NCBI GenBank assembly: GCA_024234055.1
Contig: JACKOW010000001.1
Location: 828,874 to 892,873, forward strand
Length of the DNA stretch: 64,000 bases
Origin: Rhodanobacteraceae bacterium
GTDB taxonomy: Bacteria; Pseudomonadota; Gammaproteobacteria; Xanthomonadales; SZUA-5
Reading direction: 5' to 3'
The notes under the pieces are model-generated. The model searched no databases. It saw only the letters and a list, made by a program, of their open reading frames with translations, and had not been told where the DNA came from. Below are positions 9,642-62,322 of the stretch, piece after piece. A program made the translations under genes and the position numbers. Positions within the stretch are counted from its first letter, which is position 1, and each line of letters starts with the position of its first letter.

Positions 9642-9905
9642 CGGGGCACGGGACACGGGGCACGGGGCACGGGGCGATCGTGTTGCGACCCGTGCCTCCC
9701 GGCCCCGGGTTCCCGATTCAAGGTGTTGATGCGTCATTGCGAGGAGCGCAGCGACGAAGCAATCCAGAGCCGTTTGAAACAGAGCGCCTGGATTGCTTCC
9801 CCCCGGATCAAATCCGGGCTCGAAATGACGCCGGTTCAAGGTCACTGCGCGGGCAATGTCAGAGGAATCGTAGGCCGGGTCCGCGCGCCCGCTGGCCCCG
9901 GCTGA
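9642..9905. repeat. GGGGCAC heptamer array abutting the stop codon, followed by a MITE-like hairpin (GTCATTGCGAGGAGCGCAGCGACGAAGCAATCCAG...CTGGATTGCTTC)
   Basis: Direct reading. ORF 9723..9905 lies inside the hairpin and is rejected. Confidence 0.8.
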
Positions 9906-10111: not shown

Positions 10112-10175
10112 ACAACCAGCAACCAGCAACCAGCGACCAGCAACCAGCAACCGGCAACCAGCTACCAGCTACCAG
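10112..10175. repeat. CAACCAG/CTACCAG heptamer array abutting the BI-1 stop codon
   Basis: Direct reading. Confidence 0.8.
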
Positions 10176-10178
10176 CTC

Positions 10179-24459: not shown

Positions 24460-24670
24460 GCAGATAACCCACAACCCACAACCAGCAACTACCAACCAGC
24501 AACCCACAACCAGCAACTACCAACCAGCAACCAGCAACCAGCAACCAACAACCAGCAACCAACAACCAACAACCAACAACCAACAACCAACAACCAACAA
24601 CCAACAACCAACAACCAACAACCAACAACCAACAACCAACAACCAACAACCAACAACCAACCCACCCCCT
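24460..24670. repeat. Long tandem heptamer array (CAACCAG/CAACCAA, about 28 units) between the delta-60 gene and clpB
   Basis: Direct reading. The antisense ORF 24437..25225 translates it as WLLVVGC repeats. Confidence 0.9.
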
Positions 24671-24767: not shown

Positions 24768-27344
<2,577 letters not shown>

Positions 27345-27356
27345 AGCTGCCTCGGC

Positions 27357-28425
27357 TCTGGTAGGTCACGTTGGCCCGCAGGGCCTACGTGACGTTGTCG
27401 GAGCGGGGGACTTGCCGGGAACTGGCGCATCACCGTGTCACGTAGCGCCTGCGGCGCAACGTGACCTACGCGCGTCATTAGCGACGCGGATCGCGGGGTT
27501 GGCGGGCTCTGGTAGGTCACGTTGGCCCGCAGGGCCTACGTGACGTTGTCGGAGCCGTGGGACTGCCGGGAACTGGCGCATCACCGTGTCACGTAGCGCC
27601 TACGGCACAACGTGACCTACGTTTCGCCGTAGTCGCCGTCTTCCGGAGCGACTGCAATCCAATCTCGGGAATACCAACCAAGCCTCGCAAACTTGGCAAA
27701 TGAACTCCACGGATACTGTGCTGTTCGTGTTGCATGGCCATGTTTCACTGGATTGTGGTGGATATAGTCGAGGTGCTCGTGCAGGTCATTCTCGTCGCGG
27801 ATGACATGGTCCCAATAGCGCTTTTGCCAGACGCGACCCGGCCGGTCGGGGTGGCGGCGGACAAACAGTAGCTTGAGTCTTTGCACCCAAGTGGCCGTGC
27901 CGCCAGTCGGATCACTGACCAGCAGGTGCACATGCTCATCAAGGATTGCCCACGCGTAGAGCTTGAAGTCGTGTTGGACGCGCAGATCTTGCAACAGGCG
28001 CAGAAGAAGTTCCTTGGCCTTTGTCGAGCGCAGCCAAGGCTCTCGTCTGTGGCATACAAGCGTCAGGAACACCAGCGTGCCTGGTTGATAGTGGCGGCGA
28101 ATATTGCCCACTGAGTCCGGTCGATGGGAGCGGGGCTCGGATCATGGAGCGATCCTGAAGTCCCCGACATCGGGTGAAATCCTGTTCGTGTGTAGGAGAA
28201 TTCCGACAGGGCAGCAACAGATCTTTGGTAGGTCACGCTGGCTCGCAGGGCCTGCGTGAGGTTGTCGGAGCGGGGGCTGCCGGGAACTGGCGCATCACCG
28301 TGTCACGTAGCGCCTGCGGCGCAACGTGACCTACGCGCGTCGTGACCTACGCGTATCGTGACCTACGCGTATCGTGACCTACGCGTATCGTGACCTACGC
28401 GTATCGTGACCTACGCGCGTCGTGC
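27357..28425. mobile_element. REPtron: RAYT gene flanked by cognate REP/BIME units (two tandem ~150-bp BIME units on the left, one on the right) plus a derived 16-bp tandem repeat
   Basis: REP consensus GTAGGTCACGTTGGCCCGCAGGGCCTACGTGAC and its inverted partner CACGTAGCGCCTGCGGCGCAACGTGACCTAC sit at 27357-27640 and 28226-28345. The RAYT stop codon overlaps a REP. Confidence 0.8.
27617..28111 (-). CDS. REP-associated tyrosine transposase (RAYT, IS200/IS605-like Y1 HuH)
   Basis: 164 aa. MGNIRRHYQPGTLVFLTLVCHRREP.., HuH motif HVHLLV, catalytic Tyr region YIHHNPVKHG. Flanked by inverted REPs. Confidence 0.8.
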   Translation of the reverse strand: MGNIRRHYQPGTLVFLTLVCHRREPWLRSTKAKELLLRLLQDLRVQHDFKLYAWAILDEHVHLLVSDPTGGTATWVQRLKLLFVRRHPDRPGRVWQKRYWDHVIRDENDLHEHLDYIHHNPVKHGHATRTAQYPWSSFAKFARLGWYSRDWIAVAPEDGDYGET

Positions 28426-28451
28426 AACCCGCCTCCATGACCTCCGACCTA

Positions 28452-28495
28452 TCCGACATAAAATGTCTTGACATGATATGTCGGTGAAGATAGCG
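28452..28495 (+). promoter_or_regulatory. Two adjacent 13-bp palindromes GACAT-N3-ATGTC overlapping a TTGACA -35 box, upstream of the ybjN-like gene
   Basis: CGACATAAAATGTCTTGACATGATATGTCGG in a locally AT-rich patch. Confidence 0.5.
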
Positions 28496-28543
28496 TCGAT
28501 GGCAACGCTGTAGCGTCTGATCCGCCAAGGAGGCGGGTGATCG

Positions 28544-28969
28544 ATGGCCAGGCCGCGCAAGCTGGTGACCCTGATCGAGGCGACGGTGCCGCTGCTGCAG
28601 CGGCATCTGCTGATCGATGCGATCGACGTGACTCCGATGGCTGGGGAAGTGCCGGTGATCGAGGTCGGGTTTCCGGAGGTGGATCGGCTGCCGATCTACA
28701 TCACCGATGCCGGCAGTCAGTTGCTCTGCATCAGCTATCTGTGGCGCGATGCCGACGTCAAGGCCAAGCGTCGCGGCAAGTTGCTGGAGACCTTGCTGGA
28801 TCTGAATCCGAGTGTGCCCTTGTCGGCCTTCGGACGTATCGGCGAGCACTTCGTGTTGTTCGGGGCGCTGAGCCCGCAGGCCACGCCGGAGGATATGGCG
28901 CTGGAACTGGCCACGCTCAGCGACAACGGCCGCGATGCGCTGGCCACCTTGTCCGACTTTCTGGTGTGA
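28544..28969 (+). CDS. YbjN/DUF2170 (YjfI)-like protein with type-III-secretion-chaperone-like fold
   Basis: 141 aa. C-terminal pattern HFVLFGALSPQATPEDMALELATLSDNGRDALATLSDFL. The N-terminal beta-rich part is typical of the YbjN clan. The call is from memory and unverified. Confidence 0.5.
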   Translation: MARPRKLVTLIEATVPLLQRHLLIDAIDVTPMAGEVPVIEVGFPEVDRLPIYITDAGSQLLCISYLWRDADVKAKRRGKLLETLLDLNPSVPLSAFGRIGEHFVLFGALSPQATPEDMALELATLSDNGRDALATLSDFLV

Positions 28970-28977
28970 GAGCGACC

Positions 28978-29514
28978 ATGGCCTGGTGGGATGAAGTGCT
29001 CGGATTGCTCAAGGACGAATGGAAGGCGCTGGCGCCCGGTGCGGAACGCACGGTGTCTGAGCCGCCCACGGTGAAGCAGGCGCAGGCCTTGCTGCAACGC
29101 ACAGCCAGTGAGCTGGCCGATGCCAAGGCCCGCGCCGAGGCCGCGCGTCGACGCATGCTGCGGGCGCAGTCGCAGCTGGAGGCCCTGACCCGGGCACCCG
29201 AGCAGCACCCGCGCTACCGCGATCGCTTGAGCGATCTGGCCCGAGCGGTGGTCCACGAGGGCGATATGGCGGCAAGTTTCGACAGCCATATCGCCACGCT
29301 GAGTGCGGTTCACGATCGAGTGGAAGCCCAGCTGCGCGAGTTCAACCGCGACGTGGCGATGGCCCGGGCGGCGGTGGCGGCCAGCCAGACCACGCAGGCA
29401 GCGGCACCGACGGTCAAGCCGAAGAAGCCAGCGGTCAAGGCCGGCGGTTTCGAACACGCCCGTCCGGACAAGGTCATGGATCGGTTGAGCAAGGGGCCGA
29501 GGAGGAAGCGATGA
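28978..29514 (+). CDS. Coiled-coil protein with N-terminal amphipathic helix (possible divergent PspA/IM30-like partner of the YbjN-like protein)
   Basis: 178 aa, in frame within ORF 28537..29514. Start ATG 28978 has a GAGAG SD and lies 9 bp after the upstream stop. MAWWDEVLGLLKDEWKALAPG is followed by a long Ala/Arg/Gln/Glu helix. The stop is abutted by a GGGCACG array. Confidence 0.45.
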   Translation: MAWWDEVLGLLKDEWKALAPGAERTVSEPPTVKQAQALLQRTASELADAKARAEAARRRMLRAQSQLEALTRAPEQHPRYRDRLSDLARAVVHEGDMAASFDSHIATLSAVHDRVEAQLREFNRDVAMARAAVAASQTTQAAAPTVKPKKPAVKAGGFEHARPDKVMDRLSKGPRRKR

Positions 29515-29785
29515 GGGCACGAGGGCACGAGGGCACGAGGGCGAGAAACATCGCACTGGAACCCCGTGCGCGCCCCAGCCGCTGGCAATCGGCGCCGCGA
29601 GTAGGTTGGGCCAAGGCCAACGGCCGTGCCCAACATTTCCCCCAATTCAATGTCGGGCACGCTGCGCTTTGCCCAACCTACGGCCGCGACGCGTGAAAGG
29701 GCGCAGCCTCCCCAGCCGTTGGCAATCGGCGCAGCCGGCCTTGAAGGCGGTGCAGGTGGCCTTCGATGTGTCGGAAACAGTGCTG

Positions 29786-30052
29786 ATGGCGGTGCGGCAG
29801 GCGGCGTTTGACGCCAATCTGTCGAACTCCGATCAGATCCGGGTGGTACTGGATCTGCCGATCACCCGCCAGGCCAAGCGGCCGCGGCTGACCGTGAGTC
29901 TCAGCCCCGAGGACTATCAGTTGCTGGGCAAGCGCTACAAACTGGATCCCTCGGATCATCTGGCGATCAAGGAACGGGTCAACGCCGAACTGATCGAGTT
30001 TTCCGAGTCACAATCACAGCCGAAGAAGCCCGCCAGGAGAGCCAGATCGTGA
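29786..30052 (+). CDS. Small hypothetical protein (~88 aa; possible ribbon-helix-helix-like, RLTVSLSPEDYQLL)
   Basis: In-frame part of ORF 29606..30052 downstream of the repeat block. The start is ambiguous (ATG 29786 or GTG 29756). The stop overlaps the next gene's start (GTGA). Confidence 0.35.
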   Translation: MAVRQAAFDANLSNSDQIRVVLDLPITRQAKRPRLTVSLSPEDYQLLGKRYKLDPSDHLAIKERVNAELIEFSESQSQPKKPARRARS

Positions 30053-30741
30053 ACAGTTTCATGGAGCTGCTGAGTCACTTCCCGGGATTTGTGCCCTCGG
30101 TGCTGATGGGCGCGCTGCTGGTGTTCTGGCTGCTGGCGATCATCGGCGTGCTCGATTTCGATTCGTTCGGACCGCACTTCGACGCCGACGTGCATCTGGA
30201 AACCGATGTCGATGTTCCCGAGCACGGCGGCGGTGGCAGCCATGCCGAGGCCCCGGAAACGCTGATGGCGCTGGGCCTTGACAAGCTGCCCTTCTCGATC
30301 GTGGTCAGCGGAGTGGTGTTCTTCTGGTGGCTGCTGACCTTGCTGGCGGTGTCGCTGCTGTGGACGTGGATTCCGCTGCCGGCGTGGATCGCCGGCAGCC
30401 TGATCCTGATCGCGGCGCTGATCCTGGCGGTGCCGCTGGCGGCGCGCGCGCTGCGGCCCCTGAAACCGCTGTTTGTCGTGCATGTCAGTGCCAACAAGGA
30501 AGCGATTCTCGGCAAGGCCTGCAAGATCCTGACACTGACCGTGTCGGAAAAGTTCGGCCAGGCCGAAGTCGCCCTCGGCAGCGGCGCGCCGCTGAACGTG
30601 CGCGTCTATGCCGATACCCCCAACACCCTGACCAAAGGCTCCAGCGCCCTGATCATCGACCTTGATCCCAAGAGTGGGCGTTATCGGGTGGAGGCTTATG
30701 AAGCGGCGGGACTCGGGACTCGGGACTCGGGACTCGGATGA
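30049..30741 (+). CDS. NfeD-like/YqiJ-like inner membrane protein (flotillin partner)
   Basis: 230 aa. N-terminal TM MELLSHFPGFVPSVLMGALLVFWLLAIIGVL, two more TM helices, and a C-terminal soluble beta domain typical of YqiJ/NfeD short forms. GTG start with AGGAGAG SD. The last 10 codons are encoded by a GGGACTC heptamer array. Confidence 0.6.
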   Translation: MNSFMELLSHFPGFVPSVLMGALLVFWLLAIIGVLDFDSFGPHFDADVHLETDVDVPEHGGGGSHAEAPETLMALGLDKLPFSIVVSGVVFFWWLLTLLAVSLLWTWIPLPAWIAGSLILIAALILAVPLAARALRPLKPLFVVHVSANKEAILGKACKILTLTVSEKFGQAEVALGSGAPLNVRVYADTPNTLTKGSSALIIDLDPKSGRYRVEAYEAAGLGTRDSGLG

Positions 30742-30864
30742 GGCGAAACCGTATATCCCGCTGCGGTCTTGCGTAGCTGCACCGGGTTGTCTTTTTTGAT
30801 TTTGAGAACTGCCCCATAGATTTTCTTGATCTGCGAGTCCCGAGTCCCGAGTCCCGAGTCCCGG
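30708..30864. repeat. Inverted heptamer arrays (GGGACTC x3 ... GAGTCCC x4) flanking a ~95-bp AT-richer spacer that contains a candidate sigma-70 promoter (TTGATT-15-TAGATT) for the flotillin gene
   Basis: Direct reading. It could form a long-range hairpin. Confidence 0.7.
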
Positions 30865-30898: not shown

Positions 30899-33103
30899 AT
30901 GGACCTCGCTTTCACCACATTGATCGCAGCTGTCGTCGTTGTCGTCATCTTCCTGTTCGGATTCCTGGCGTTGATCGCCAAGTTCTACCGCAAGGTGGAG
31001 CAGGGTCACGCCATGATCGTCAACACCATGCGGGTGGAGCCCGAGGTGACTTTTACCGGGCGGCTGGTGATCCCGGTGCTGCACAAGGTCGAAGAGATGG
31101 ACATCTCGATGAAGACCATCGAGATCGAGCGCATGGGCAAGGAGGGCCTGATCTGCAGGGACAACATGCGCGCCGACATCAAGGTCAAGTTCTTCGTGCG
31201 CGTCAACAAGACCGCCGAGGACGTGCTGCGGGTGGCCCAGGCCATCGGCTGCGCCCGCGCCAGCAACCAGGACACGCTGGAGGATCTGTTCTCGGCCAAG
31301 TTCTCCGAAGCGCTGAAGACCGTCGGCAAGGCAATGGATTTCGTCGATCTGTACCAGGCCCGCGACCAGTTCCGCGACGAGATCGTGCGCCAGATTGGCG
31401 ACGACCTGTCCGGCTACGTGCTGGAAGACGCGGCCATCGACTATCTGGAGCAGACCCCGCTGGAGAAGCTTGATCCGCACAACATCCTCGACGCCCAGGG
31501 CATCAAGAAGATCACCGAGCTCACGGCCGAAGAGAACATCCGCACCAACGAGTTTCGCCGCAACGAAGAGATGCGGATCAAGAAGAAGGATGTGGAAACG
31601 GCAGAGGCGGTGCTCGAACTGGAGCGCCAGAAGGCCTATGCCGAGGCCCATCAGCAGCGCGAGATCACCATCACCAAGGCGCGCGAAGAGGCCGAGTCGG
31701 CCAAGGTCGCCTCGGAAGAGCGCGCCAAGTCGGAGCTGGCACGGCTGCTGGCTGATCAGCAGATCGCGGTGCAGAACGAGAACGTCAAGCGCGAGACCGA
31801 AGTTGCCCAGAACAACCGTCTGCGCGCCGTGGCTATCGAGGAAGAGAAGGTCACCCGCGCCCGCGAGCTGGAGATCGTCGACCGCGAGCGCGAGGTGACG
31901 CTGCAGCAGATCGAGAAGGAGAAGGCGGTCGAGGTGCAGAAGAAGGCCATCGCCGACGTCATCCGCGAGCGCATCGTGGTCGAGCGCACCGTTGCCGAGC
32001 AGGAAGAAGAAATCAAGAACGTGCGGGTCATGTCCGAGGCCGAGCGCACCCGCAAGAGCACCATCGTGCTCGCCGAGGGCCAGGCCCAGGAGAAGTTCAT
32101 CGCCGAGGTCAAGCTGGCCGAAGCCGACGAGCAGCGCGCCAAGCACAAATCAGCCGAAGAGCAGACCCTGGCCGAAGCCAGGCTGGCGGTCGCCGCCAAG
32201 ATGGCCGAAGCCAAGAAGCGCGAAGCCGAGGGCATCGAGGCGCTGTCAGCGGCATCTGGACTGGCCGAAGCCAAGGTCGCCATTGCCAAGGCCGATGCCA
32301 AGGAAAAGGACGGCATCGTCGCCGCCAAGATCAAGCTGGCGGATGCCGACGCCGTGGTCAAGCTCGGCGATGCCCATGCCCACGCGCTGCAGGCCAAGAT
32401 GGAGGCCGAGGCGGCAGGTCGCGAGAAGCAGGGCGTGGCCGAAGCGCAGGTCAAGCTGGTCGACGCTGATGCCATCGCCAAGCAGGGCGCGGCACAGGCC
32501 GAAGCCCTGCGTCTGAAGCTGGAAGCCGAGGCCACCGGTCGACAGAAGAGCGGCGAAGCCGAGGCCGCGGCCATTGCGGCACGCTTCGCGGCCGAGTCCG
32601 AAGGCCTCACCGCCAAGTTCGAGGCCATGACCAAGATGAGCCCGGAAACAAGGGCCCACGAAGAGCAGCGCATGCAGCTGGACTACAGTCATGCCGAAAC
32701 CCTGCGCGGCATCGAGGCCAACCAGGCCATCGCCAAGGACCAGGCCCAGGTGCTGTCGCGTGCCCTGCAACAGGCCAAGATCGAGATCGTCGGCGGCGAC
32801 GGCGAGTACTTCGACAGCTTCATGCGCAGCCTGTCGCTGGGCAAGGCCATCGACGGCACCGTCGGCAAGAGCCAGCTGCTGAACAAGGCCTTCGCCGAGC
32901 ACAAGGCCGGCAAACGCGATCTGCTGCAGGACGCCAAGGAACTGGTCGCTGCGGTGGGTGGGGCGGATGCGGTGCGCGATCTGAGCGTTGCGGCACTGAT
33001 GCAGAAGCTGGTGGCGGGGGGGAAGACCAAGGAGTTGGAGATGTTGAAGAAGCTGGTGGGCGACAGCGGGGCAGGGGGCACGGGGCAGGGGGCACGGGAG
33101 TAG
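30899..33103 (+). CDS. Flotillin / SPFH (band-7) domain protein, YqiK-like, with long C-terminal Ala/Glu/Lys-rich coiled coil
   Basis: 734 aa. N-terminal TM, an SPFH domain (..HAMIVNTMRVEPEVTFTGRLVIPVLHKVEEMDISMKT..) and flotillin-type EA repeats. AAGGA SD. The last ~11 codons (GAGGTGQGARE) are encoded by a GGGGCAG/GGGGCAC heptamer array. Confidence 0.85.
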   Translation: MDLAFTTLIAAVVVVVIFLFGFLALIAKFYRKVEQGHAMIVNTMRVEPEVTFTGRLVIPVLHKVEEMDISMKTIEIERMGKEGLICRDNMRADIKVKFFVRVNKTAEDVLRVAQAIGCARASNQDTLEDLFSAKFSEALKTVGKAMDFVDLYQARDQFRDEIVRQIGDDLSGYVLEDAAIDYLEQTPLEKLDPHNILDAQGIKKITELTAEENIRTNEFRRNEEMRIKKKDVETAEAVLELERQKAYAEAHQQREITITKAREEAESAKVASEERAKSELARLLADQQIAVQNENVKRETEVAQNNRLRAVAIEEEKVTRARELEIVDREREVTLQQIEKEKAVEVQKKAIADVIRERIVVERTVAEQEEEIKNVRVMSEAERTRKSTIVLAEGQAQEKFIAEVKLAEADEQRAKHKSAEEQTLAEARLAVAAKMAEAKKREAEGIEALSAASGLAEAKVAIAKADAKEKDGIVAAKIKLADADAVVKLGDAHAHALQAKMEAEAAGREKQGVAEAQVKLVDADAIAKQGAAQAEALRLKLEAEATGRQKSGEAEAAAIAARFAAESEGLTAKFEAMTKMSPETRAHEEQRMQLDYSHAETLRGIEANQAIAKDQAQVLSRALQQAKIEIVGGDGEYFDSFMRSLSLGKAIDGTVGKSQLLNKAFAEHKAGKRDLLQDAKELVAAVGGADAVRDLSVAALMQKLVAGGKTKELEMLKKLVGDSGAGGTGQGARE

Positions 33104-33159
33104 CTTCGCGCGCCGGGACTATTTCGAGTTTCGACCACTCCCAAGGCAGGAGCGAAGAA

Positions 33160-33660
33160 GTGATCTCCAGTTTCCGTGATCTGGATGTTTGGAAGGGCGC
33201 CGTTGACCTGGCTGTCGAGGTCTATCGGTTGACGCGCCCATTCCCCGTCGACGAGCGCTTCGGGTTGACGTCGCAGCTTCGGCGCGCAGCGAACTCGGTT
33301 GCGTCAAATATTGCTGAGGGTCACGCCAGAAACAGCACACGAGAGTTCGTGCAGTTCGTCTCCGTCGCTCTGGGCTCATTGGCCGAGCTAGAGACCCAGT
33401 GGACCATCGCAAGCAGGGTTGGTTTGCTCGAATCGACTGACGAGACGATCGAGTCGCTGCCACGGCTCAGGGCGCAGTTGCTGAATCTGAGAAGCGCGTT
33501 GCTGCGACGGGCCAATGGTGTATCCGAGTTCATTCCGAGTTACGAAATGACGGTAGATCTGAAAGCCCCGGTTGCGAAGGAACTGAGGGATGGCGATCCA
33601 GAGGGAGCGGCGATCGCTGTTCCCGTGCCCCGTGCCCCCTGCCCCGTGCCCCGCCCATGA
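33160..33660 (+). CDS. Four-helix-bundle protein (23S rRNA intervening-sequence protein family) with repeat-encoded C-terminal extension
   Basis: MISSFRDLDVWKGAVDLAVEVYRLTRPFPVDERFGLTSQLRRAANSVASNIAEGHARNSTREFVQFVSVALGSLAELETQ is a near-textbook match to the family. 166 aa versus a typical ~120. The tail (..VPVPRAPCPVPRP) is encoded by a CCCCGTG array. The stop overlaps the next gene's ATG (ATGA). Confidence 0.8.
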   Translation: MISSFRDLDVWKGAVDLAVEVYRLTRPFPVDERFGLTSQLRRAANSVASNIAEGHARNSTREFVQFVSVALGSLAELETQWTIASRVGLLESTDETIESLPRLRAQLLNLRSALLRRANGVSEFIPSYEMTVDLKAPVAKELRDGDPEGAAIAVPVPRAPCPVPRP

Positions 33661-36600
33661 CCTCATCCGCCACCTTCGACCTGCTCCGCAAACGCCTGGC
33701 CGCGGCTTCCGAGTCGCTGCGCGCCAAGGCCGATGCGCTCAACGCCAAGCGCATCAGTACCTTTGGACGCATTGAGCCCAAGCTGACGGCGCGCTTGAGT
33801 GCGCGCACCGAGCACAATTGCGTCGCGCGCGACATCGTGCGTGTGGGCGAGCGGCTGCTGTTCGGCTACAACGTGACGATGGGTCTGAAGAAGGAGACCC
33901 GGGTCGAGGATGTGTTCTGCCTCTACCAGCTGGCCGAGGGCGCGGAGGGCGTGGAGCTTCAGACCGTGCCCATTGCCGGCAGCTTTCTGGACGACCAGCG
34001 CTTTGTCGCCGATTTCCGCGAGCTCTTCACTTACTACAAGGCGACCACGCTGGATCAGCTGCGGCTGGTCAACGAGCGCTTGCTGCTGATCTTCCGCACT
34101 GGCAGCCAGCCGGGTGACAAGCGGGTGTTCCGCTTTGCCGTCGATACCGCCGGCGCGCTCACCTACATCGACAATCGCGGTGAGCGCGACCATGTGCTGC
34201 CGCCCTCGCACAGTTTCGAGTGGCAGCCGGTGGGGCGCGAGGATCATGTGCTCGGTCGGCATGCCCATGTGAACATCCTCGACACGGTGTTTGTCGAAAC
34301 CATCGGCGGCGATCTGACCATCAAGATCGAGAACAACACCGACACCGGTCTGGGTATCTATTCCGAGCCGGTCGAGGACAAGAACCAGGCGCTGGCCGAT
34401 GCCGAGATTGCCTACGCCGATCTGCCAACCCTGATCCTGCTCAGCATCAAGCCCTACCGCGAGAACCACACCCGCTACCTGGTCTACAACAAGCGTCTGA
34501 AGCAGGTGCTGCGCATCGACGAGATCGGTGATTCCTGCGTGGAGCTGCCCGAGGACCACGGCATCGTGTTTCCCGGCGGCTACTACCTCGAATCCGGTGA
34601 TTTCAAGCATTTCAAGGATCTGGGCCACGATTTCAGCGGCTACCGGCTGAAGCGTACGGTGCGGGCGCCCAGCGGCGAGGATGTGCTCTACGTCTTCTAC
34701 GACACCGCCAGGGGCGACTATGCCCTGCTGCCCTATAACCTGATCGACCGCGCCATCGGCCAGCCGCTGCTGGCAGCGGGCTACGCGCGCTTCGACGATG
34801 GCCAGATCCTGCTGGTCACGCCCGAGGGCAGCGATGCCTCACGGCTGCACACCATGCAGCTGTGGCGCACGCCTTTCGCCTCCGAGGAACACGCCAGCGC
34901 CCAGCCCAAGGTCGGCGGCCTGCTCGGGCGCCTGGGCAATGCCAATGTGGTGCGGGCACTGGCGGAACTGCGCGAGCTGACCCGGCTGGCCGAAGATGCC
35001 GCCAGTGAAGGCGCCTACGAGCGCTTGCTGAAGCTGGCGGCGCGCTGTGTCGACGCCCATCCCTGGTTGGCGGAGGCCGAGGTCGGACAGATTGCGGCCG
35101 AAGTGGGCACGCTGGCGCGCAGCGGGCGCGAGGCGCTGGAAGCCTATGAGAAGCTGGAGCGCGCACGACAGTCAGCGCGCCAGGCGGTCGAGGCGGCGCA
35201 GGGCGAGGTCAGCGAGCTGCTGTCCAAGGTGGTCAGCCTGCTGTGGCAGAAGCCCGAGGACTTCACCGAGGCGATTCGCGCCATCAAGCGCAAGCGCGGC
35301 GAGCTGACGGGATTGCGCGAACAGGCGCATGTGGACCTGGCCGCGATCGATGCCCAGGACACCCGTTTGCGCGAGGAGCTCGATCGCATCGGCGAGCGCG
35401 CGCTCAAGTTCTTTGCCGATCCAGCGGCCTTTGCCAGCTTGCGCAAGGGGCTGAACGAGGCGGCAGCGGCGGTCGACAGCGCCAAGAGCACCAAGGCGCT
35501 GGCGCCGATCGGCGAAAAGCTGGATGCGCTGGCCGAGTCGCTGGACGGGCTGTCGGAACTGATCGCCAGTTTCGAGCAGACCGACGCCCAGCAGCGGGCC
35601 ATCCTGTTGGGTCAGACCAGCGCGCTGTATGCCGAGGTCAATCGCATCCGCGCCGGGTTGCGTACGCGCCGCGAGGGCCTGCTGGAGCAGGAGCAGGGAC
35701 TGGAATTCGGGGCCCAGTTGACCGTGCTGGAGCAGTCACTCACGAATCTGCTGGCGCGCAGCGACAGTCCCGAAGCCATCGACGAGGCGCTGGCGCGCAC
35801 GCTCGGCCAGATCGAACACCTGGAGGGGCGCTTCGGCTCGCAACCCGGCTTTCTGGTCGAACTGACCAGCCGTCGGGAGGCTGCGCTGGAAGCCTTCGCA
35901 GCCCGGCGCGAGCAGATCGCGGCGCAGCGCGACAAGCGCGCGCAGGGCCTGCGCGATGCGGTCTCGCGGGTGCTGGATGGCATTCCGCGGCGTATCGCCA
36001 AGCTCTCCGAGGCCGACGAGCTGCATGGCTTCTTTGCTGGCGACACCCTGGTCGAACGCGCCCAGGCCCAGATCGAAGAGCTGCGCCAGCTGGGCGCGGC
36101 CGTGCAGGCCGATGAACTGGCCGGGCGCCTGCGCAGTCTCAAGGAAGCCGGGTTGCGCGATCTGCGCGATCGGCTGGAACTCGGGACGTCGGGGGATTCC
36201 CTGGCCCTGGGCCGACAGCGTTTCACGATCGAACGCCGGCCGCTGGATCTGGCACTGCTGCACAACGAGCAGGGGCTGTCGCTGCAACTGACCGGTACGG
36301 ATTACCGGGTGGCGCTGGATGAGCCCGAGGCCGAGCAGCATCGCGAAGTCTGGGGTCAGGTGCTACCGAACGAGACCGAATCGGTCTATCGGGCCGAATA
36401 CCTGGCCTGGCGCATCTGGCAGCGCGCCAGTGCCGGCGATGCCGCGATCAACGCCGCCCTGCGCGCCACCGAGGGCAGCGCGCTGGCCGATCTGGTGGCT
36501 GAGGAAGCGCAGCGACATCCCACCGAGGACTACCAGCGCGGCGTGCACGATGCCGATGCCACGCGCATCGTGCAGGCGCTGGACAGCATCGCCCGGCAAG

Positions 36601-38747
36601 CCGGCGAATTGCGCTGGCCGGCATCGGCGCGGGTGCTGGCGCAGGCCTGGTTTGCCGGTCTGGACGCGCCTGGACAAGCTTCGACGCGCGGATTGGCGGC
36701 GGGTCTCGGCTGGTTCCTTGCACGAGGCGAGGGCATGCCGGTGCCTCCGTCTTGGCAAGGCGCCCTGAGCGCGCTGGCGGCCGAACTCGGACTGCCGGGC
36801 GACGCCAGCAGCATCGAATCGGCTGCCCGTCATCTGGCGGCCAGCCTGGGCGGCACCTTGCCCAGCTTCGCCGCCAGCGGGCGGGCGCTGGATCTGGCCG
36901 AACAGGTTTCGCGCGAGCTGCCGGTGACGGCGCTGGCGGCGTTGAACGCGCCGGTGGAGACCGGCGAAAAGCTGGCCTTGGCCGGCGCCTGGTGTGCCCG
37001 CGTGCAGCCCGACGCCCATCCCGCCAGTGTGCTCGAAGCGGCGGCGATTCTGTGCTTCCCGGGCCTGGCTCGCGAGCGCATCAATGTCGAGCTGCACACC
37101 CGCATCGAGGGCCTGCGCGGCGAGCATGCACGCGTCAAGCAGGGCGTGCTGGAACTGGATTTTCCGGAGTTCCTGATCCGCCTGGCGCAGCATCAGCAGA
37201 CCGTGGCGCCGGCCTGGTCGGCCTTTGCGGCACTGCGCCATCGCGTCAGTGAACGCGAGCGCAAACGTCTGGGACTGCACCGTTTCGAGGCCAAGCCGCT
37301 GGCCGGATTTGTGCGCAACCGGCTGATCGACGAGGTCTATCTGCCGCTGATCGGCAACAATCTGGCCAAGCAGATCGGCACCATCGGCGATCAACGTTCG
37401 GACCGTTCCGGCCTGCTGCTGCTGATCTCGCCGCCGGGCTATGGCAAGACCACCTTGATGGAATACATCGCCGATCGCCTGGGCATGATCTTCGTGCGCG
37501 TCAACGGACCCACGCTGGGCCACGAAATCACCTCGCTGGATCCGGCCCAGGCCAGCACCCGCGGCGCCGCCGAGGAACTGGTCAAGCTCAATCTGGGCCT
37601 GGCCATGGGCGTCAACGTGATGCTCTATGTCGACGACATCCAGCACTGCTCGCCGGAATTCCTGCAGAAATTCATCTCGCTGGCCGACGGCACCCGGCGC
37701 ATCGATGCGGTCATCGACGGCAGTGCCCGCACCATCGATCTGCGCGGCAAGCGTTTCGCGCTGGTCATGGCCGGCAATCCCTACACCGAAACCGGCGAGA
37801 TGTTCCGCATTCCCGACATGCTGGCCAACCGCGCCGATGTCTACAATCTGGGCGATGTGCTGAGCGGCCGCGAAGCGCTGTTTGCCGACAGCTACATCGA
37901 GAACGCACTGACCGCCAACCCGCTGTCGGCGCCACTGGCCGAGCGTCCGCGCGCCGAGATCCAGACGGTGCTGCGCATCGCCCGCGGCGACGACGAGCTG
38001 CTGCCCAGCGGCTTGCCCGGTGGTGTGGAGCTGGTGGAACTGGTCAAGCGCATGCTCAGCGTGCGTGACGTGCTGGGCAGGGTCAACGCCAGCTACGTCG
38101 CCAGCGCCGCCCAGGACGACAGCTATCGCACGGAGCCGCCCTTCAAGCTGCAGGGTAGCTACCGCAACATGGTCAAGCTGGCAGCGCAGTTGAGCCCGCT
38201 GATGACCGAAGCCGAGCTCGATGCGCTGATCCGTGACCACTATCGCGGCGAAGCCCAGACCCTGGGTGCACGCGCCGAAGAGAATCTGCTGAAGCTGGCG
38301 CAACTGATCGGCCATCCCAGCGCCGAGGAAGCAACGCGCTGGCAGCAGCTGGTCGACAACTTCCAGCGGCTGATGAAGCAGGGCGGCAAGGAGGCCGATG
38401 GCGCCACCCGCGCCGCTCAAGTGCTCGCCGACATCGCCCAGCAATTGCAGAAGCAGAACGAACAGTCGGCCGGCACCCGCGAGGCTCTGAAGGCACTGGA
38501 ATCGCTGGGCGAGATCCGCGAACTGCTGGCGAGGGTGCCGCGTGATCCGCAGCTGGACATGCCGCCGGCGCTCGCTGACACCCTGACCAAGATGGCCAAG
38601 GCCTACGAGAACACCCTGGTGCCGATCGTCTCGGCCCTGCACCACAAGATGACCCTGGATCACGATATCTGGGAACAGGTGCGCGACATGCGCAAGGAAG
38701 TCGACGCCCTGATGAAGCGCATCGGCAGCGGCAAGCGGGCGCCGTGA
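33657..38747 (+). CDS. Giant (1696 aa) protein: N-terminal ~420-aa globular region, ~700-aa Ala/Glu/Leu/Arg-rich coiled-coil/helical region, C-terminal AAA+ ATPase of MoxR/AAA_5 (dynein-related/McrB-like) type
   Basis: Walker A LLLISPPGYGKTTLMEYIADRLG (aa ~1350), Walker B VMLYVDDIQH, sensor-1-like FALVMAGNP. Single long ORF with uniform coding signal. No family name recognised. Confidence 0.7.
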   Translation: MTSSATFDLLRKRLAAASESLRAKADALNAKRISTFGRIEPKLTARLSARTEHNCVARDIVRVGERLLFGYNVTMGLKKETRVEDVFCLYQLAEGAEGVELQTVPIAGSFLDDQRFVADFRELFTYYKATTLDQLRLVNERLLLIFRTGSQPGDKRVFRFAVDTAGALTYIDNRGERDHVLPPSHSFEWQPVGREDHVLGRHAHVNILDTVFVETIGGDLTIKIENNTDTGLGIYSEPVEDKNQALADAEIAYADLPTLILLSIKPYRENHTRYLVYNKRLKQVLRIDEIGDSCVELPEDHGIVFPGGYYLESGDFKHFKDLGHDFSGYRLKRTVRAPSGEDVLYVFYDTARGDYALLPYNLIDRAIGQPLLAAGYARFDDGQILLVTPEGSDASRLHTMQLWRTPFASEEHASAQPKVGGLLGRLGNANVVRALAELRELTRLAEDAASEGAYERLLKLAARCVDAHPWLAEAEVGQIAAEVGTLARSGREALEAYEKLERARQSARQAVEAAQGEVSELLSKVVSLLWQKPEDFTEAIRAIKRKRGELTGLREQAHVDLAAIDAQDTRLREELDRIGERALKFFADPAAFASLRKGLNEAAAAVDSAKSTKALAPIGEKLDALAESLDGLSELIASFEQTDAQQRAILLGQTSALYAEVNRIRAGLRTRREGLLEQEQGLEFGAQLTVLEQSLTNLLARSDSPEAIDEALARTLGQIEHLEGRFGSQPGFLVELTSRREAALEAFAARREQIAAQRDKRAQGLRDAVSRVLDGIPRRIAKLSEADELHGFFAGDTLVERAQAQIEELRQLGAAVQADELAGRLRSLKEAGLRDLRDRLELGTSGDSLALGRQRFTIERRPLDLALLHNEQGLSLQLTGTDYRVALDEPEAEQHREVWGQVLPNETESVYRAEYLAWRIWQRASAGDAAINAALRATEGSALADLVAEEAQRHPTEDYQRGVHDADATRIVQALDSIARQAGELRWPASARVLAQAWFAGLDAPGQASTRGLAAGLGWFLARGEGMPVPPSWQGALSALAAELGLPGDASSIESAARHLAASLGGTLPSFAASGRALDLAEQVSRELPVTALAALNAPVETGEKLALAGAWCARVQPDAHPASVLEAAAILCFPGLARERINVELHTRIEGLRGEHARVKQGVLELDFPEFLIRLAQHQQTVAPAWSAFAALRHRVSERERKRLGLHRFEAKPLAGFVRNRLIDEVYLPLIGNNLAKQIGTIGDQRSDRSGLLLLISPPGYGKTTLMEYIADRLGMIFVRVNGPTLGHEITSLDPAQASTRGAAEELVKLNLGLAMGVNVMLYVDDIQHCSPEFLQKFISLADGTRRIDAVIDGSARTIDLRGKRFALVMAGNPYTETGEMFRIPDMLANRADVYNLGDVLSGREALFADSYIENALTANPLSAPLAERPRAEIQTVLRIARGDDELLPSGLPGGVELVELVKRMLSVRDVLGRVNASYVASAAQDDSYRTEPPFKLQGSYRNMVKLAAQLSPLMTEAELDALIRDHYRGEAQTLGARAEENLLKLAQLIGHPSAEEATRWQQLVDNFQRLMKQGGKEADGATRAAQVLADIAQQLQKQNEQSAGTREALKALESLGEIRELLARVPRDPQLDMPPALADTLTKMAKAYENTLVPIVSALHHKMTLDHDIWEQVRDMRKEVDALMKRIGSGKRAP

Positions 38748-39205: not shown

Positions 39206-39985
39206 GTGTCCGAGTTTGACGCCGTCGATCGTATCGTCAGGCCCTATCTGGCCGAGACCTCTACGGCTACCTCGCTGCGCTTTGCCGGGCACCAGATCCA
39301 GAGCCAGATGTGGAATCACGCACCCGATGCGCTGGCGCTGGACTACACCCGGGCGATGATGGGTTTCGTGCTGTTCGATCCGGCGCCGGCGCGGATCGGC
39401 ATGATCGGTCTGGGCGGCGGGTCGCTGGTCAAGTTCTGTCACCGCAACCTGCCGAGTTCGGCGATGGAGGTGGTCGAGAACAGCCCGCTGGTGATGGATT
39501 TGCGCGCCATCTTCCAGGTGCCACCCGACGACGAACGCCTCAGCGTGCATCTGGCCGATGGCGCCGATTACATCGCCCGCGCCCGCAATCGCTATGACGT
39601 GCTGTTGCTGGATGCCTATGACCGCGTCGGTATTCCGCCGCCGCTGGCGACGCTGCGCTTCTATCTGCAGTGCCGACGCGCGCTGCGCGGCAATGGCGTG
39701 TTGGTGGCCAATATCGCCCGCGATCAGGTCCAGGGCGGGAATCCGATCGAGCGCATTGCCGCGGTCTTCGATGATCGGCTGCTGGTGGTGCGCGATGCCG
39801 AGCATTGCAACGACATCGTCTTCGCCTGGACTGGCGACATCGACGATGCGCATCTTTCCGACCAGGGCCGTCCAGTCGAGATTCGCGGGGAAGCGTGGGA
39901 CCACGTGATTCCGGCGCTGGATCGCGTGCGTTTCGCCTGGCGCGAAAGGGCGCGTAAACAGGTGCTCGCGCAAGCGCTCTTGTAG
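39206..39985 (+). CDS. Spermidine/spermine synthase-like (polyamine aminopropyltransferase fold) protein
   Basis: GTG start with AGGAG SD 8 nt upstream. Motifs IGMIGLGGGSL.., VLLLDAYD, typical of the spermidine-synthase-like SAM-dependent fold. 259 aa. Confidence 0.55.
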   Translation: MSEFDAVDRIVRPYLAETSTATSLRFAGHQIQSQMWNHAPDALALDYTRAMMGFVLFDPAPARIGMIGLGGGSLVKFCHRNLPSSAMEVVENSPLVMDLRAIFQVPPDDERLSVHLADGADYIARARNRYDVLLLDAYDRVGIPPPLATLRFYLQCRRALRGNGVLVANIARDQVQGGNPIERIAAVFDDRLLVVRDAEHCNDIVFAWTGDIDDAHLSDQGRPVEIRGEAWDHVIPALDRVRFAWRERARKQVLAQALL

Positions 39986-41994: not shown

Positions 41995-42540
41995 TTGTCG
42001 GTTGTGGGTTGTGGGTTGTGGGAGTCCCGGTCGCCCCTGGCGGTGCGCTTGTTCGTGCATCAAACAAGGGGCAGGGGGCGGGGGGCGGGGGACCCACGTC
42101 GCGGCACGGTCAGATCATGCGTCGAGGTTGGACCCCTGCCCCTTGCCACTTCTATTGCATGCTTATACATCAATGCGTTAGCGTATTTTTGGTGAATGCG
42201 GACTCTCTCCGCAATAGCTCAATGGCCCGGGCCGCAGGCTCTTGTGAGTCCAGACTTGTCTGGACCCACCAAAACCGGCTGTTGTGGGTCCGGACTTGTC
42301 CGGACGCTCTTGTTTCAACTCGCCAGAAGCGTCCAGACAAGTCTGGACCCACAAGAGCACCGAAGCCCGTAGCCTTTCCCCGTGCCCCGTGCCCCGTGCC
42401 CCGTGCCCCGTGCCCCGTGCCCTCGTGCCCTCGTGCCCTCTTGCCCTCGCGCCCTCGTGCCCCGACATTCGTCACATGCCGCCCGCCAGGGCTTGCATAG
42501 AATCCGGTCAGCTGTTCATATGCTCGGTCTACCGAGGCGC
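41995..42540. repeat. Repeat mosaic: GTTGTCG/GTTGTGG heptamers, G-rich run, AT-rich island (42150-42200), palindromic CTTGTGAGTCCAGACTTGTCTGGACCCAC / GCGTCCAGACAAGTCTGGACCCACAAGAG elements, CCCCGTG x5 plus GCCCTCGT octamer array
   Basis: Direct reading. Confidence 0.8.
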
Positions 42541-55789: not shown

Positions 55790-56170
55790 AATCCGGGGCA
55801 TGGGGCACGGGAAGAGCTCACACCTGGGCCTCATTGCGAGCCACCTGTGTCGGCCTGAAACTGCCCACGGGCCATGAACCCCCGGCGTCATTGCGAGCGT
55901 AGCGAAGCAATCCAGGGATGTGCGGCGCTACCCTGGATTGCTTCGTCGCTGCGCTCCTCGCAATGACGCCGGCTCTTGTAGGCCCAGACTTGTCTGGACG
56001 CTCTTGGCGACATGCTGAAAAAGCGTCGAGACAAGTCTGGACCTACAAGAGCCAGAAGCGCGTAGCCTTTTCCCGTGCCCCGTGCCCGTGCCCCGTGCCC
56101 CGTGCCCCGTGCCCCGTGCCCCGTGCCCCGTGCCCCGTGCCCCGTGCCCCGTGCCCCGTGCCCCGTGCCA
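55790..56170. repeat. Repeat mosaic: MITE-like hairpin (GTCATTGCGAGCGTAGCGAAGCAATCCAGGG...CCCTGGATTGCTTCGTCGCTGCGCTCCTCGCAATGACGCC), palindromic CTTGTAGGCCCAGACTTGTCTGGACGC / GTCGAGACAAGTCTGGACCTACAAGAG pair, CCCCGTG x12 array
   Basis: Direct reading. Confidence 0.85.
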
Positions 56171-61689: not shown

Positions 61690-62320
61690 CTCAGAAGCCG
61701 CCCGCGGAGTACGCATAGGAAAAGCAGAGAGTACGCGAAGAAGAGCGTTCATTTCTTCGGGGCGCTCTGAATCCTCTGTCATTGCGAGCCACCTGGGTCG
61801 GCCCGACACTGCGCACGGGCCATGAACCCCCGGCGTCATTGCGAGCTTAGCGAAGCAATCCAGAGACGTGCCGCAAAGCACTGGATTGCTTCGTCGCTAC
61901 GCTCCTCGCAATGACGCATCAACAACTTGCGATATGGGTTCATGGAAAGCCACCTGTTTCGGCCCGACACTGCTCACGGGCCATGAACCCATATCGTAAC
62001 TTGTTGATTTGAAGTCCGCATGAGCACAGCGCCAGCTTCGTCCACCCGTAGGAGCGCCCTTGCGGCGCGACCACCGCTGGGGATGTGCGGATTGCCGGTC
62101 GCGACGCGAGGTCGCTCATACAGGCGGGTTTGTGGCTCATGGCCCATGGGCAGTTTCAGGCCGACACAGGTGGCTCGCAACGACGCCGTGATAGGGTGAT
62201 TCTGAAAACCCGCACCCCGCACCCCGCACCCCGCACCCCGCGCCCCGCGCCCCGTGCCCCGTGCCCCGTGCCCCGTGCCCCGTGCCCCGTGCCCCGTGCC
62301 TGCCCCGTGCCTGCCCCGTG
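61690..62320. repeat. Two nested MITE-like hairpins (GTCATTGCGAGCCACCTGGGTCGGCCCGACACTGCGCACGGGCCATGAACCC.. and GGCGTCATTGCGAGCTTAGCGAAGCAATCCAG..CTGGATTGCTTCGTCGCTACGCTCCTCGCAATGACGC), REP-like GTAGGAGCGCCCTTGCGGCGCGAC, then a ~115-bp CCCCGCA/CCCCGTG/CCTGCCCCGTG array abutting the nudC stop
   Basis: Direct reading. Confidence 0.85.
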
Positions 62321-62322
62321 CC

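Follow-up and report, generated by a model that had tools for sequence, protein, structure and literature searches.

What bacterial flotillins do is still unsettled, and the corresponding mutants show mild or pleiotropic phenotypes (PMC13086221, PMC2636767). NfeD-type partners of SPFH proteins are a known theme (PMC2636767). In Pseudomonas aeruginosa, the genes bacABCDEF are co-transcribed, and a bacA mutant has all Bac proteins, including PA14_16190, at levels raised 6- to 13-fold (PMC10948618); deletion of paFlo3, the flotillin of this species, gives a mild biofilm phenotype only (PMC13086221). The operon and the ATPase architecture dealt with here were already described by Ravi et al. in 2024, who named a YqiJ/YuaF 3TM protein in the same operon (PMC11237479). 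In Bacillus subtilis, SPFH and PspA proteins share the membrane-stress operon pspA-ydjGHI (samGHI), in which YdjI ties PspA to the membrane, according to one study (PMC8581546). Unlike the operon presented below, pspA-ydjGHI has no giant AAA+ ATPase.

HflK/C-FtsH and prohibitin-m-AAA are systems in which an SPFH scaffold is coupled, genetically or physically, to a membrane AAA+ ATPase. The giant protein is likewise linked genetically to a flotillin; when the literature was searched for structures of a flotillin-AAA+ complex, only HflK/C-FtsH papers came up. It differs from FtsH in having no transmembrane anchor, no HEXXH motif and no Peptidase_M41 match, and in carrying a MoxR-like AAA+ module outside the classical FtsH clade. 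In part of the family the ATPase gene stands beside that of PspA, a member of the ESCRT-III superfamily, which recalls Vps4/ESCRT-III; however, the giant has no MIT domain and belongs to a different AAA+ clade, its best match is not a classical AAA core, and most of its loci lack PspA.

The flotillin operon and its last gene

The window, that is, the whole stretch of 64,000 nucleotides of Rhodanobacteraceae DNA that was analysed, contains the following features around the giant gene:

28544..28969, + strand: DUF2170/YjfI-like (CesT/Tir-like) protein, distant BacA homologue, first operon gene (Pfam DUF2170, E=2e-24)
28978..29514, + strand: 178-aa coiled-coil protein in the PspA/BacB position
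29606..30052, + strand: small conserved protein of ~100-130 aa, its true start within the ORF uncertain
30049..30741, + strand: multi-pass membrane protein, YqiJ/YuaF-type short NfeD-like, BacC position (hydropathy, synteny)
30899..33103, + strand: 734-aa SPFH/flotillin-like protein with N-terminal membrane anchor, BacD/PaFlo3 position (Pfam Band_7, E=2.8e-9)
33066..33104, no strand: left arm of an inverted heptamer array, CGGGGCA units (inverted-repeat search; TRF rows 33067-33098)
33160..33660, + strand: inserted four-helix-bundle (4HB) gene, 23S rRNA IVS protein family (Pfam 23S_rRNA_IVP, E=1.4e-32; TIGR02436, E=2e-31)
33616..33654, no strand: right arm of the same inverted array, made of CCCCGTG units (repeat searches)
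33657..38747, + strand: giant DUF3686-DUF7902-AAA+ ATPase of the BacE/PA3728 family (ORF, Pfam, homologues)
39206..39985, + strand: polyamine aminopropyltransferase-like ORF, downstream and possibly associated (Pfam Spermine_synth, E=1.4e-7)

The giant gene closes a conserved operon for membrane stress, in which it follows genes for the DUF2170 (BacA-like) protein, the coiled-coil protein in the PspA position, the small protein, the YqiJ/NfeD-like protein and the SPFH protein. The flotillin gene mentioned in the first-pass annotation is indeed there, upstream and with a Band_7 match, and the linkage that this annotation proposed to check was borne out: in directed phmmer searches, on which the neighbour counts are based, all 80 loci with upstream sequence have a flotillin homologue on the same strand, upstream of the giant gene (E values between 1e-158 and 0). 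It adjoins the giant gene in 78 of these 80, with median gaps of 93-154 bp and gaps of at most ~925 bp in 78 of 80. The window keeps the gene order of the family, flotillin and giant being parted by the ~550 bp 4HB insertion. An NfeD/YqiJ-like gene is found directly upstream of the flotillin gene in 75/84 loci; PspA (17 loci) and DUF2170 (29 loci) are limited to a proteobacterial subset.

Regarding the individual neighbours, the DUF2170 gene also occupies the first position in L001, L003, L085, L087 and L088, and its product in the window scores 31 bits with the NCBIfam BacA model, far under the cutoff. The next protein has no Pfam PspA match and cannot be recognised as PspA; it resembles Chitiniphilus PspA only weakly and locally, over 46 aa at 28% identity (pairwise E=2e-4), and in L001, L085, L087 and L088 the same position is taken by proteins of 175-191 aa without a Pfam match. 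The small protein matched no family in the Pfam scan, and phmmer found it in 15 loci, mostly between the PspA-position and NfeD-like genes. The NfeD-like product has no Pfam or NCBIfam match of its own, its hydropathy exceeds the transmembrane threshold up to ~aa 120, and its Pseudomonas counterpart PA14_16160 has been called a short NfeD (PMC13086221). Hydropathy also gives the flotillin-like protein an N-terminal transmembrane segment.

No conserved downstream partner gene was found across loci, the downstream genes varying from PLD-like, rhomboid-like and coiled-coil genes to other small clusters, as judged from their sequences. The product of the aminopropyltransferase-like ORF matches NCBIfam PRK04457 (E=7e-52) under the cutoff, and this ORF is not conserved across loci. 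The earlier statement that a VWA or McrC partner is missing holds among the window neighbours (Pfam) and in the downstream clusters (judged from sequences).

The counterpart of the giant in P. aeruginosa is probably BacE (PA3728, listed as 'ATPase') of the bacABCDEF operon, judging from this label, synteny and primer positions. The same architecture and the same order of DUF2170, PspA position, short NfeD, flotillin and giant are present in six other Pseudomonas species, and of the published PA14_16180/16190 junction primers, one maps in Pseudomonas orthologues to the 3' end of the flotillin gene and the other, allowing for one indel, to the site in DUF3686 that codes for TENNCIA. Identity between these orthologues and the window giant is ~42%. 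The window operon differs from the bac operon in that its PspA-position protein has diverged beyond recognition, a 4HB gene is inserted before the ATPase gene, and no sigma-54 promoter like that proposed for bacA was found upstream of it, including 28100-28543; sigma-54 pattern matches in the window are fewer than expected by chance.

Domain layout and ATPase module of the giant protein

The ORF scan of the window confirmed the giant gene as an ATG-initiated ORF of 1696 aa. A Rhodanobacteraceae MAG protein, named 'DNA repair ATPase' by NCBI, matches it at 100%, and its homologues number more than 4000. Within the gene, the following parts can be distinguished:

33717..35060, + strand: DUF3686 domain (aa 21-468), a long N-terminal helix and, after it, ~28 strands in a beta-rich domain resembling a propeller
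35427..35675, + strand: DUF7902 (aa 591-673), within a heptad-like helical stretch, ~aa 450-800 (Pfam; crude heptad score)
37320..37916, + strand: AAA+ alpha/beta core, ~aa 1222-1420
37917..38744, + strand: lid and C-terminal helical region (conservation profile, invariant columns, model secondary structure)

The N-terminal region, previously considered impossible to place in any family, is Pfam DUF3686 (E=5e-175, 582.6 bits against a gathering cutoff of 25), covering positions 2-447 of the 448 in the profile. DUF7902 was recognised with E=3.9e-16 (59.5 bits, cutoff 26) and the AAA family with 26.8 bits (cutoff 21.2). The five motifs quoted in the first-pass annotation (PPGYGKTT, YVDDIQH, MAGNP, FRFAVDTAG and HFKDLGHDF) are all in the protein, but the residue numbers given to three of them (~1355, ~1415 and ~1465) were ~95 too high, the Walker A motif being at aa 1259, the Walker B at 1324 and MAGNP at 1371. 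Nor does the ATPase form the C-terminal end, because ~320 residues, made up of the lid and a conserved helical region, come after MAGNP; this region bears the conserved motifs SAAQ..R.EPPFKLQGSYRNM and RDHYRGEAQTL, and the final ~100 aa are poorly conserved.

The core shows Walker A GYGKTT (1261-1266), Walker B VDD (1325-1327), a beta-hairpin (aa 1348-1361) preceding sensor 1 (N1374) and a candidate Arg finger, R1392. The middle of the protein had been described as a coiled coil of ~700 aa, which is an overstatement: by the crude heptad score on which the coiled-coil content of this region (aa 480-1190) is based, the signal is raised only over ~aa 450-800, whereas aa 800-1200 are helix-rich in composition but not heptad-like, with the conserved non-coiled motifs GTDY and GVHDxDA and a Pro/Gly-rich, poorly conserved stretch at aa 1000-1050. 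The maximum KD19 hydropathy is 1.32, so the giant has no transmembrane segment; a motif scan of the protein found neither DxSxS (MIDAS) nor HExxH.

The giant is thus an orthologue in the widespread and catalogued DUF3686-DUF7902-AAA+ family, which is present in at least 588 species genomes (Pseudomonadota, Myxococcota, Actinomycetota, Planctomycetota, Acidobacteriota) and of which 337 representatives of clusters at 50% identity reach E<=1e-30. Full-length colinear relatives were found down to 25% identity; those with lengths of 1600-2036 aa share 25-53% identity with the giant when aligned over residues 1-1200. The term 'unrecognised architecture', applied to the protein at first, is wrong: Pfam has families for both domains outside the ATPase, NCBI holds the identical protein, and layout and operon had been described by Ravi et al. 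in 2024 (PMC11237479) and, for P. aeruginosa, under the name bacE (PMC10948618). Architecture and operon being published and the family being listed in Pfam, none of this is new with the window; its copy adds a Rhodanobacteraceae orthologue and one case of a 4HB cassette between flotillin and ATPase genes. For the first-pass annotation, assignment to a well-known family with a conserved but unrelated context would have refuted its reading, and this is only half the case: the protein falls into a family that is catalogued rather than functionally well known, and it stands in the flotillin context that had been suspected.

In the predicted model, MoxR members are the nearest structural matches to the AAA+ core, which shows a beta-hairpin ahead of sensor 1, and the module appears to be MoxR(CbbQ/NorQ)-like. 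This assignment rests on the predicted model (pLDDT 78), since Pfam AAA_5 reaches 19.5 against a gathering score of 22 and single-sequence and profile searches of PDB sequences gave P-loop-level matches only, so that the giant has no solved relative there; Pfam yielded no AAA_3 or bpMoxR match, and NCBIfam assigned no family, giving only sub-threshold RuvB, Cdc48 and BrxF hits over the P-loop. MoxR proteins normally have a VWA partner. CbbQ and NorQ, proteins of ~250-270 aa, work with CbbO and NorD (VWA/MIDAS proteins); the giant, in contrast, has neither a VWA partner nor the MIDAS DxSxS, shares only 17-19% identity with them, and carries its module within 1696 aa and with DD in Walker B. In AAA+ proteins a catalytic Glu is normal in this motif. 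The giant has LYVDD instead of hhhhDE, with both D1326 and D1327 invariant, and with Asp in place of the catalytic Glu its ATP hydrolysis may be slow or absent.

Proposed role at the membrane and alternative readings

The consistent position of giant genes after a flotillin gene makes a membrane role likelier than DNA repair, and it is at the membrane that the protein most likely acts. That a giant ATPase is fixed beside the flotillin gene in hundreds of species from at least five phyla suggests that flotillins work with a step that consumes energy, for which the ATPase offers a concrete experimental handle. Our preferred reading, held with moderate confidence, is that the giant is a soluble motor that remodels the flotillin/NfeD assembly during membrane stress. 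The protein would be soluble and cytoplasmic, with a MoxR-like module that would form oligomers and hydrolyse ATP; its N-terminus, a beta-propeller-like domain set on a ~750-aa helical region, could be a built-in adaptor replacing the usual VWA partner of MoxR. As part of a PspA-type envelope-stress response, the motor would act at the inner membrane, on its cytoplasmic face, where it might assemble the flotillin/NfeD complex, disassemble it or relieve it of clients. The giant has no transmembrane segment, whereas the flotillin and NfeD-like proteins have them. On pQBR103, PspA, yjf genes, an SPFH gene and the giant stand in one string, and in B. subtilis an SPFH protein recruits PspA (PMC8581546). 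The rise of the Bac proteins in the bacA mutant (PMC10948618) and the induction of PA3728-PA3732 on phage infection (PMC12041424) also count for this reading; the Asp in Walker B, the MoxR assignment by model and the mild phenotype of the paFlo3 deletion (PMC13086221) count against it. Gene adjacency shows functional coupling but does not tell which operon product is the substrate. More tentatively, and with the balance somewhat against it, the NfeD-flotillin-giant trio may be a dedicated membrane-remodelling machine, whose motor assembles, disassembles or empties flotillin cages through its beta-propeller adaptor, coupled to PspA/ESCRT-III polymers where PspA is present. In that case, flotillin in bacteria would pass through an energy-driven cycle like that of ESCRT-III-Vps4 or HflK/C-FtsH.

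Among the alternatives, a motor working mainly on PspA (bacterial ESCRT-III) polymers as a Vps4 analogue, with flotillin/NfeD as a membrane platform only, is unlikely. In its favour, PspA and its chaperone-like partner DUF2170 share the operon in many proteobacteria, including P. aeruginosa, Ravi et al. put forward an ESCRT-like remodelling role where PspA is associated with AAA+ proteins (PMC11237479), and Vps4 is among the structural matches of the giant. We consider improbable that the giant is a pseudo-ATPase, binding nucleotide without mechanical work and organising a flotillin microdomain via its long helical region. The invariant DD in place of DE and the very long helical non-ATPase part, which fits scaffolding, speak for such a scaffold or switch, but the Walker A lysine (K1264), D1326/D1327, N1374, R1392 and a GSYR motif are invariant among sequences of 29-56% identity, and conservation of the Lys, sensor-1 Asn, candidate Arg finger and GSYR is typical of selection for hydrolysis.

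A part in anti-phage defence or abortive infection is quite improbable. PA3728-PA3732 are induced in all phage-infected P. aeruginosa samples (PMC12041424), and the giant has very weak matches to IetA and mad8 over 26-31 residues of the P-loop (E 0.003-0.006); nevertheless, PADLOC gave no match to it beyond the P-loop and none to four of its neighbours at E<=0.01, and the N-terminal domain is found in 0/50,697 phage records and in 13/72,556 plasmid records, most of these 13 being megaplasmids or as large as chromosomes. In both the window and its close relative L087, the same ClpB and Y1-transposase genes come before the operon, and the flanking genes are otherwise unrelated between loci and not defence genes. 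The role in DNA repair given by the Pfam description and the NCBI name is barely credible: apart from the names, there are weak RuvB_N and RuvB matches over the P-loop (E 2e-4 and 8e-5, far under cutoffs). Against it, Pfam and NCBIfam revealed neither a DNA-binding domain nor a nuclease nor a split ABC head of SMC type; Walker A and Walker B belong to a single AAA+ fold, with 65 residues between them, and the neighbours are invariably membrane proteins. The name, although widely propagated, is probably misleading; it probably goes back to the annotation of the coiled-coil region and says nothing on function.

Related to this name, an SMC/SbcC/RecN-type protein was considered and rejected, Walker A (1259) and Walker B (1324) lying in one contiguous AAA+ fold, the N-terminus being beta-rich, and no SMC/SbcC match to the giant having been obtained. 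The Shewanella SO1377 flotillin knock-out, with its raised mutation rate, was also discarded as the source of the name: there the flotillin gene is followed by a terminator, at which the operon stops, and no ATPase is mentioned in it (PMC1468410). Literature searches for DUF3686, PF12458, or 'flotillin' with 'DNA repair ATPase' returned nothing.

The cassette between the flotillin and ATPase genes

The 4HB cassette is a secondary insertion before the giant gene. At the same site a 4HB gene is present in L088, a remnant remains in L087, and L085 and 80 more distant loci have none; the window holds no second 4HB gene. The cassette is surrounded by a heptamer inverted repeat of 39 nt (87% complementary, 511 nt between the arms), whose left arm overlaps the 3' end of the flotillin ORF. 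The 4HB ORF runs through the right array, and its TGA overlaps the ATG of the giant as ATGA, as had been noticed earlier. The start codon, on the other hand, is not inside the CCCCGTG array (33621-33655) but 2-3 nt past its end, and the suggestion that expression could depend on array length finds no support, the array being the right arm of the 39-nt inverted repeat, with a similar length in relatives. The window and two relatives with giant proteins 75-84% identical have ~4-5 imperfect units each, and with this similar unit number the array looks old and stable.

Domain architecture and distribution of the giant ATPase

The giant ATPase, a member of the BacE/PA3728 family named 'DNA repair ATPase' by NCBI, is encoded by a real gene:

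33657..38747, + strand, giant ATPase gene, ATG-initiated ORF of 1696 aa

The first-pass annotation had described an unrecognised architecture with an N-terminal region that could be placed in no family. This was wrong, since Pfam assigns aa 21-468 to DUF3686 (PF12458, E=5.4e-175), whose Pfam description is 'ATPase involved in DNA repair'. Pfam also places DUF7902 at aa 591-673 (E=3.9e-16) and, over aa 1246-1377, AAA (26.8 bits, above the cutoff) and AAA_22, with RuvB_N and AAA_5 below threshold; scans of the protein against NCBIfam and PADLOC gave nothing beyond P-loop-level matches. Membership of this catalogued family is secure, and both the architecture and the operon had been published before. 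The literature search found no paper that names DUF3686 or PF12458, nor any biochemical or structural study of a family member.

The protein search returned a 100% identical protein of a Rhodanobacteraceae MAG, annotated 'DNA repair ATPase', and more than 4000 proteins matching the giant at E<=1e-5; the best 120 of these share its Pfam architecture and measure 1678-1812 aa, with one partial exception. An exhaustive search with aa 1-1200 yielded 337 cluster representatives (50% identity clusters) at E<=1e-30, and the full-length relatives (1600-2036 aa) align with all 1200 query residues at 25-53% identity. Among the matches listed are Xanthomonadales, Burkholderiales, Pseudomonas, Xenorhabdus, Gilliamella, Myxococcota, many Actinomycetota, Planctomycetota and Acidobacteriota; with each species represented by a single genome, the scan gave at least 588 loci encoding the giant. 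No copy of the N-terminal domain turned up in 50,697 phage records; of 72,556 plasmid records only 13 have it, and most of these are megaplasmids or of chromosome size.

The peptide strings quoted in the first-pass annotation are all present, but its motif numbers need lowering by about 95 residues, to starts at 1259 for PPGYGKTT, 1324 for YVDDIQH and 1371 for MAGNP. About 320 residues follow MAGNP, and therefore the ATPase is not the C-terminal end of the protein, as had been supposed. Only approximately aa 450-800 stand out in a crude heptad score, and aa 800-1200 contain conserved non-heptad motifs together with a poorly conserved Pro/Gly-rich stretch. Hydropathy gives no candidate TM helix, the 19-residue Kyte-Doolittle mean peaking at 1.32, and the motif search of the protein found neither HExxH nor the MIDAS motif DxSxS. 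In an alignment of 24 sequences (29-56% identity), every residue of Walker A from S1258 to T1266 (SPPGYGKTT, with K1264) is invariant, as are D1326, D1327, Q1329, H1330, G1373, N1374, P1375, P1386-L1389 (PDML), N1391, R1392, Q1499-R1503 (QGSYR) and M1505. The Walker B motif of AAA+ proteins is usually DE; here the two invariant aspartates make it DD. The hhhhDD motif lies at window positions 37626-37646 (aa 1324-1330) and is followed by the invariant Q1329 and H1330.

The flotillin operon and its published counterparts

The genes preceding the giant are all on the same strand.

Genes upstream of the giant ATPase gene
28544-28969, + strand, DUF2170 protein gene (Pfam E=2e-24)
listed directly after the DUF2170 gene, + strand, gene of a 178-aa coiled-coil protein
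after the coiled-coil protein gene and upstream of the giant, + strand, small-protein gene
30049-30741, + strand, multi-pass membrane protein (NfeD/YqiJ-like) gene
30899-33103, + strand, Band_7/SPFH (flotillin) gene, 734 aa, N-terminal anchor
33160-33660, + strand, four-helix-bundle (4HB) gene of the 23S rRNA IVS protein family, 166 aa

The ORFs of 84 homologous loci were searched with the neighbour proteins of the window. The link to flotillin, raised in the first-pass annotation, held throughout: each of the 80 loci having upstream sequence has a flotillin homologue (E 1e-158 to 0) 5' of the giant and co-oriented with it, and the four loci without a match begin less than 300 bp from a contig end. 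In 78 of the 80, no more than about 925 bp separate flotillin and giant; the median gap is 93-154 bp. Of the 84 loci, 75 have the NfeD/YqiJ-like protein, 29 have DUF2170 and 15 have the small protein. The genes 3' of the giant are variable (PLD-like, rhomboid-like, coiled-coil or unrelated), and no VWA gene was seen among them. The conserved core therefore consists of the NfeD-like protein, the flotillin and the giant ATPase, DUF2170 and PspA being additions in part of the Proteobacteria.

This operon type was already described by Ravi et al. 2024 (PMC11237479), who reported phospholipase D as an occasional addition, a wider distribution of shortened flotillin-YqiJ(-ATPase) operons, and a recurrent tie of PspA operons to polyamine genes. 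The counterpart in P. aeruginosa is the co-transcribed operon bacABCDEF (PA14_16140-16200, PA3732-PA3727), for which sigma-54 dependence has been proposed (PMC10948618). PA14_16160 codes for a short NfeD, PA14_16180 for the flotillin PaFlo3 (PMC13086221), and a review of adaptation in cystic fibrosis (PMC8190622) tables PA3728 as a recurrent 'ATPase' gene. In other Pseudomonas species, the published PA14_16180/16190 junction primers map to the 3' end of the flotillin gene, the reverse primer, with one indel, falling on the site that codes for the DUF3686 motif TENNCIA. Judging from this mapping, BacE is very probably the orthologue of the giant.

On pQBR103, a megaplasmid of P. fluorescens SBW25 (locus L089, NC_009444.1, 1-12178), the co-directional genes run PspA, rhomboid, DUF2491, DUF350, DUF1190, glutathionylspermidine-synthase-like, hypothetical, SPFH and 'DNA repair ATPase'; this string includes homologues of YjfK/L/M/C and unites the yjf-type with the flotillin-type PspA operons. 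In the window, an ORF about 460 bp 3' of the giant (39206-39985, + strand) is polyamine aminopropyltransferase-like (NCBIfam PRK04457, E=7e-52, below cutoff), and a full-length ClpB disaggregase gene (24768-27344, + strand) precedes the operon by about 1.2 kb.

Possible function of the giant ATPase

The motor appears to resemble those of MoxR remodellers, which have a VWA adaptor, whereas the giant has none. From the constant flotillin and NfeD-like partners, the soluble giant and this motor, we infer a soluble cytoplasmic AAA+ remodeller as the most economical model, which as a whole has about an even chance of being correct. The propeller-like domain and helical region of the giant itself would stand in for the adaptor, the target would be the flotillin/NfeD assembly on the inner face of the membrane, and the setting, in loci having PspA, would be a PspA-type stress response.

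Among the alternatives, the highest ranked is that PspA polymers are the true substrate, handled in the manner of Vps4; it is doubtful, weakened because PspA is missing from most homologous loci. A non-hydrolysing scaffold, to which the DD of Walker B would be suited, comes next and is unlikely, given that the active-site residues are invariant. Even less probable is anti-phage defence: phage infection does induce PA3728-PA3732 (PMC12041424), but no defence model matched beyond the P-loop, phage copies are absent from the records searched and plasmid copies are few. A role in DNA repair, whose sole basis is the database name, is the least credible and very improbable indeed. The strict flotillin-ATPase coupling offers a direct route to testing how bacterial flotillins function.

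The 4HB cassette and repeats around the operon

The window copy of the giant is ordinary save for the inserted 4HB cassette. An inverted repeat with arms 511 nt apart brackets the 4HB gene, and its right arm is the CCCCGTG array, about 4.6 imperfect units, before the ATG of the giant.

Inverted-repeat arms
33066-33104, left arm, 39 nt
33616-33654, right arm, 39 nt; arms 87% complementary, and perfectly so over a 24-nt core

The start codon had been located inside the array; it lies 2-3 nt past it. Its overlap with the TGA of the 4HB ORF, as ATGA, was correctly noted and is an automatic outcome of the conserved Met-Thr start of the giant. The cassette is intact at the matching junction of locus L088 (6410-7000; giant 75% identical) and a decayed remnant in L087 (6690-7000; 84% identical), and it was found neither in L085 (83% identical) nor in 80 more distant loci. 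Control of expression by array length, also suggested in the first-pass annotation, is unsupported: the window, L088 and L087 each carry about 4-5 imperfect units, and the arrays at this junction look old and stable. No Shine-Dalgarno-like sequence occurs at any of the four flotillin/giant junctions (window, L085, L087 and L088), and translation of the giant is possibly coupled to that of the upstream ORF. With its inverted 7-nt-unit arrays, the 4HB gene has the appearance of an insertion cassette, possibly mobile.

Heptamer arrays are widespread through the window, which is unusually rich in tandem 7-nt-unit arrays of several sequence families (76 TRF rows); CCCCGTG-type 14-mers number 38, versus 1.9 expected by chance.

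Other 7-nt arrays in the window
9642-9675
10113-10176
24466-24661, AACCAAC x28
42378-42464, CCCCGTG x11.7
56072-56169, x14
62209-62322

The NfeD-like and flotillin genes have an inverted heptamer pair, CGGGACT / CGAGTCC (30707-30737 and 30834-30863), between them; its first array encodes the last residues of the NfeD-like protein (..GLGTRDSGLG), and the flotillin C-terminus (..GAGGTGQGARE) is likewise encoded by the CGGGGCA array, the left arm beside the 4HB gene. Immediately upstream of the operon, a Y1_Tnp (IS200-like) transposase gene (27617-28111, - strand) adjoins a 16-nt tandem array (28325-28417; CGTGACCTACGCGTAT x5.8). The flotillin-ATPase gap of L085 (4960-5070) is full of palindromes with the same GTAGGTCACG core, and the array or palindromes and Y1_Tnp may represent a REP element with its associated transposase. 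In L087 the operon is preceded by ClpB and Y1_Tnp genes, as in the window.
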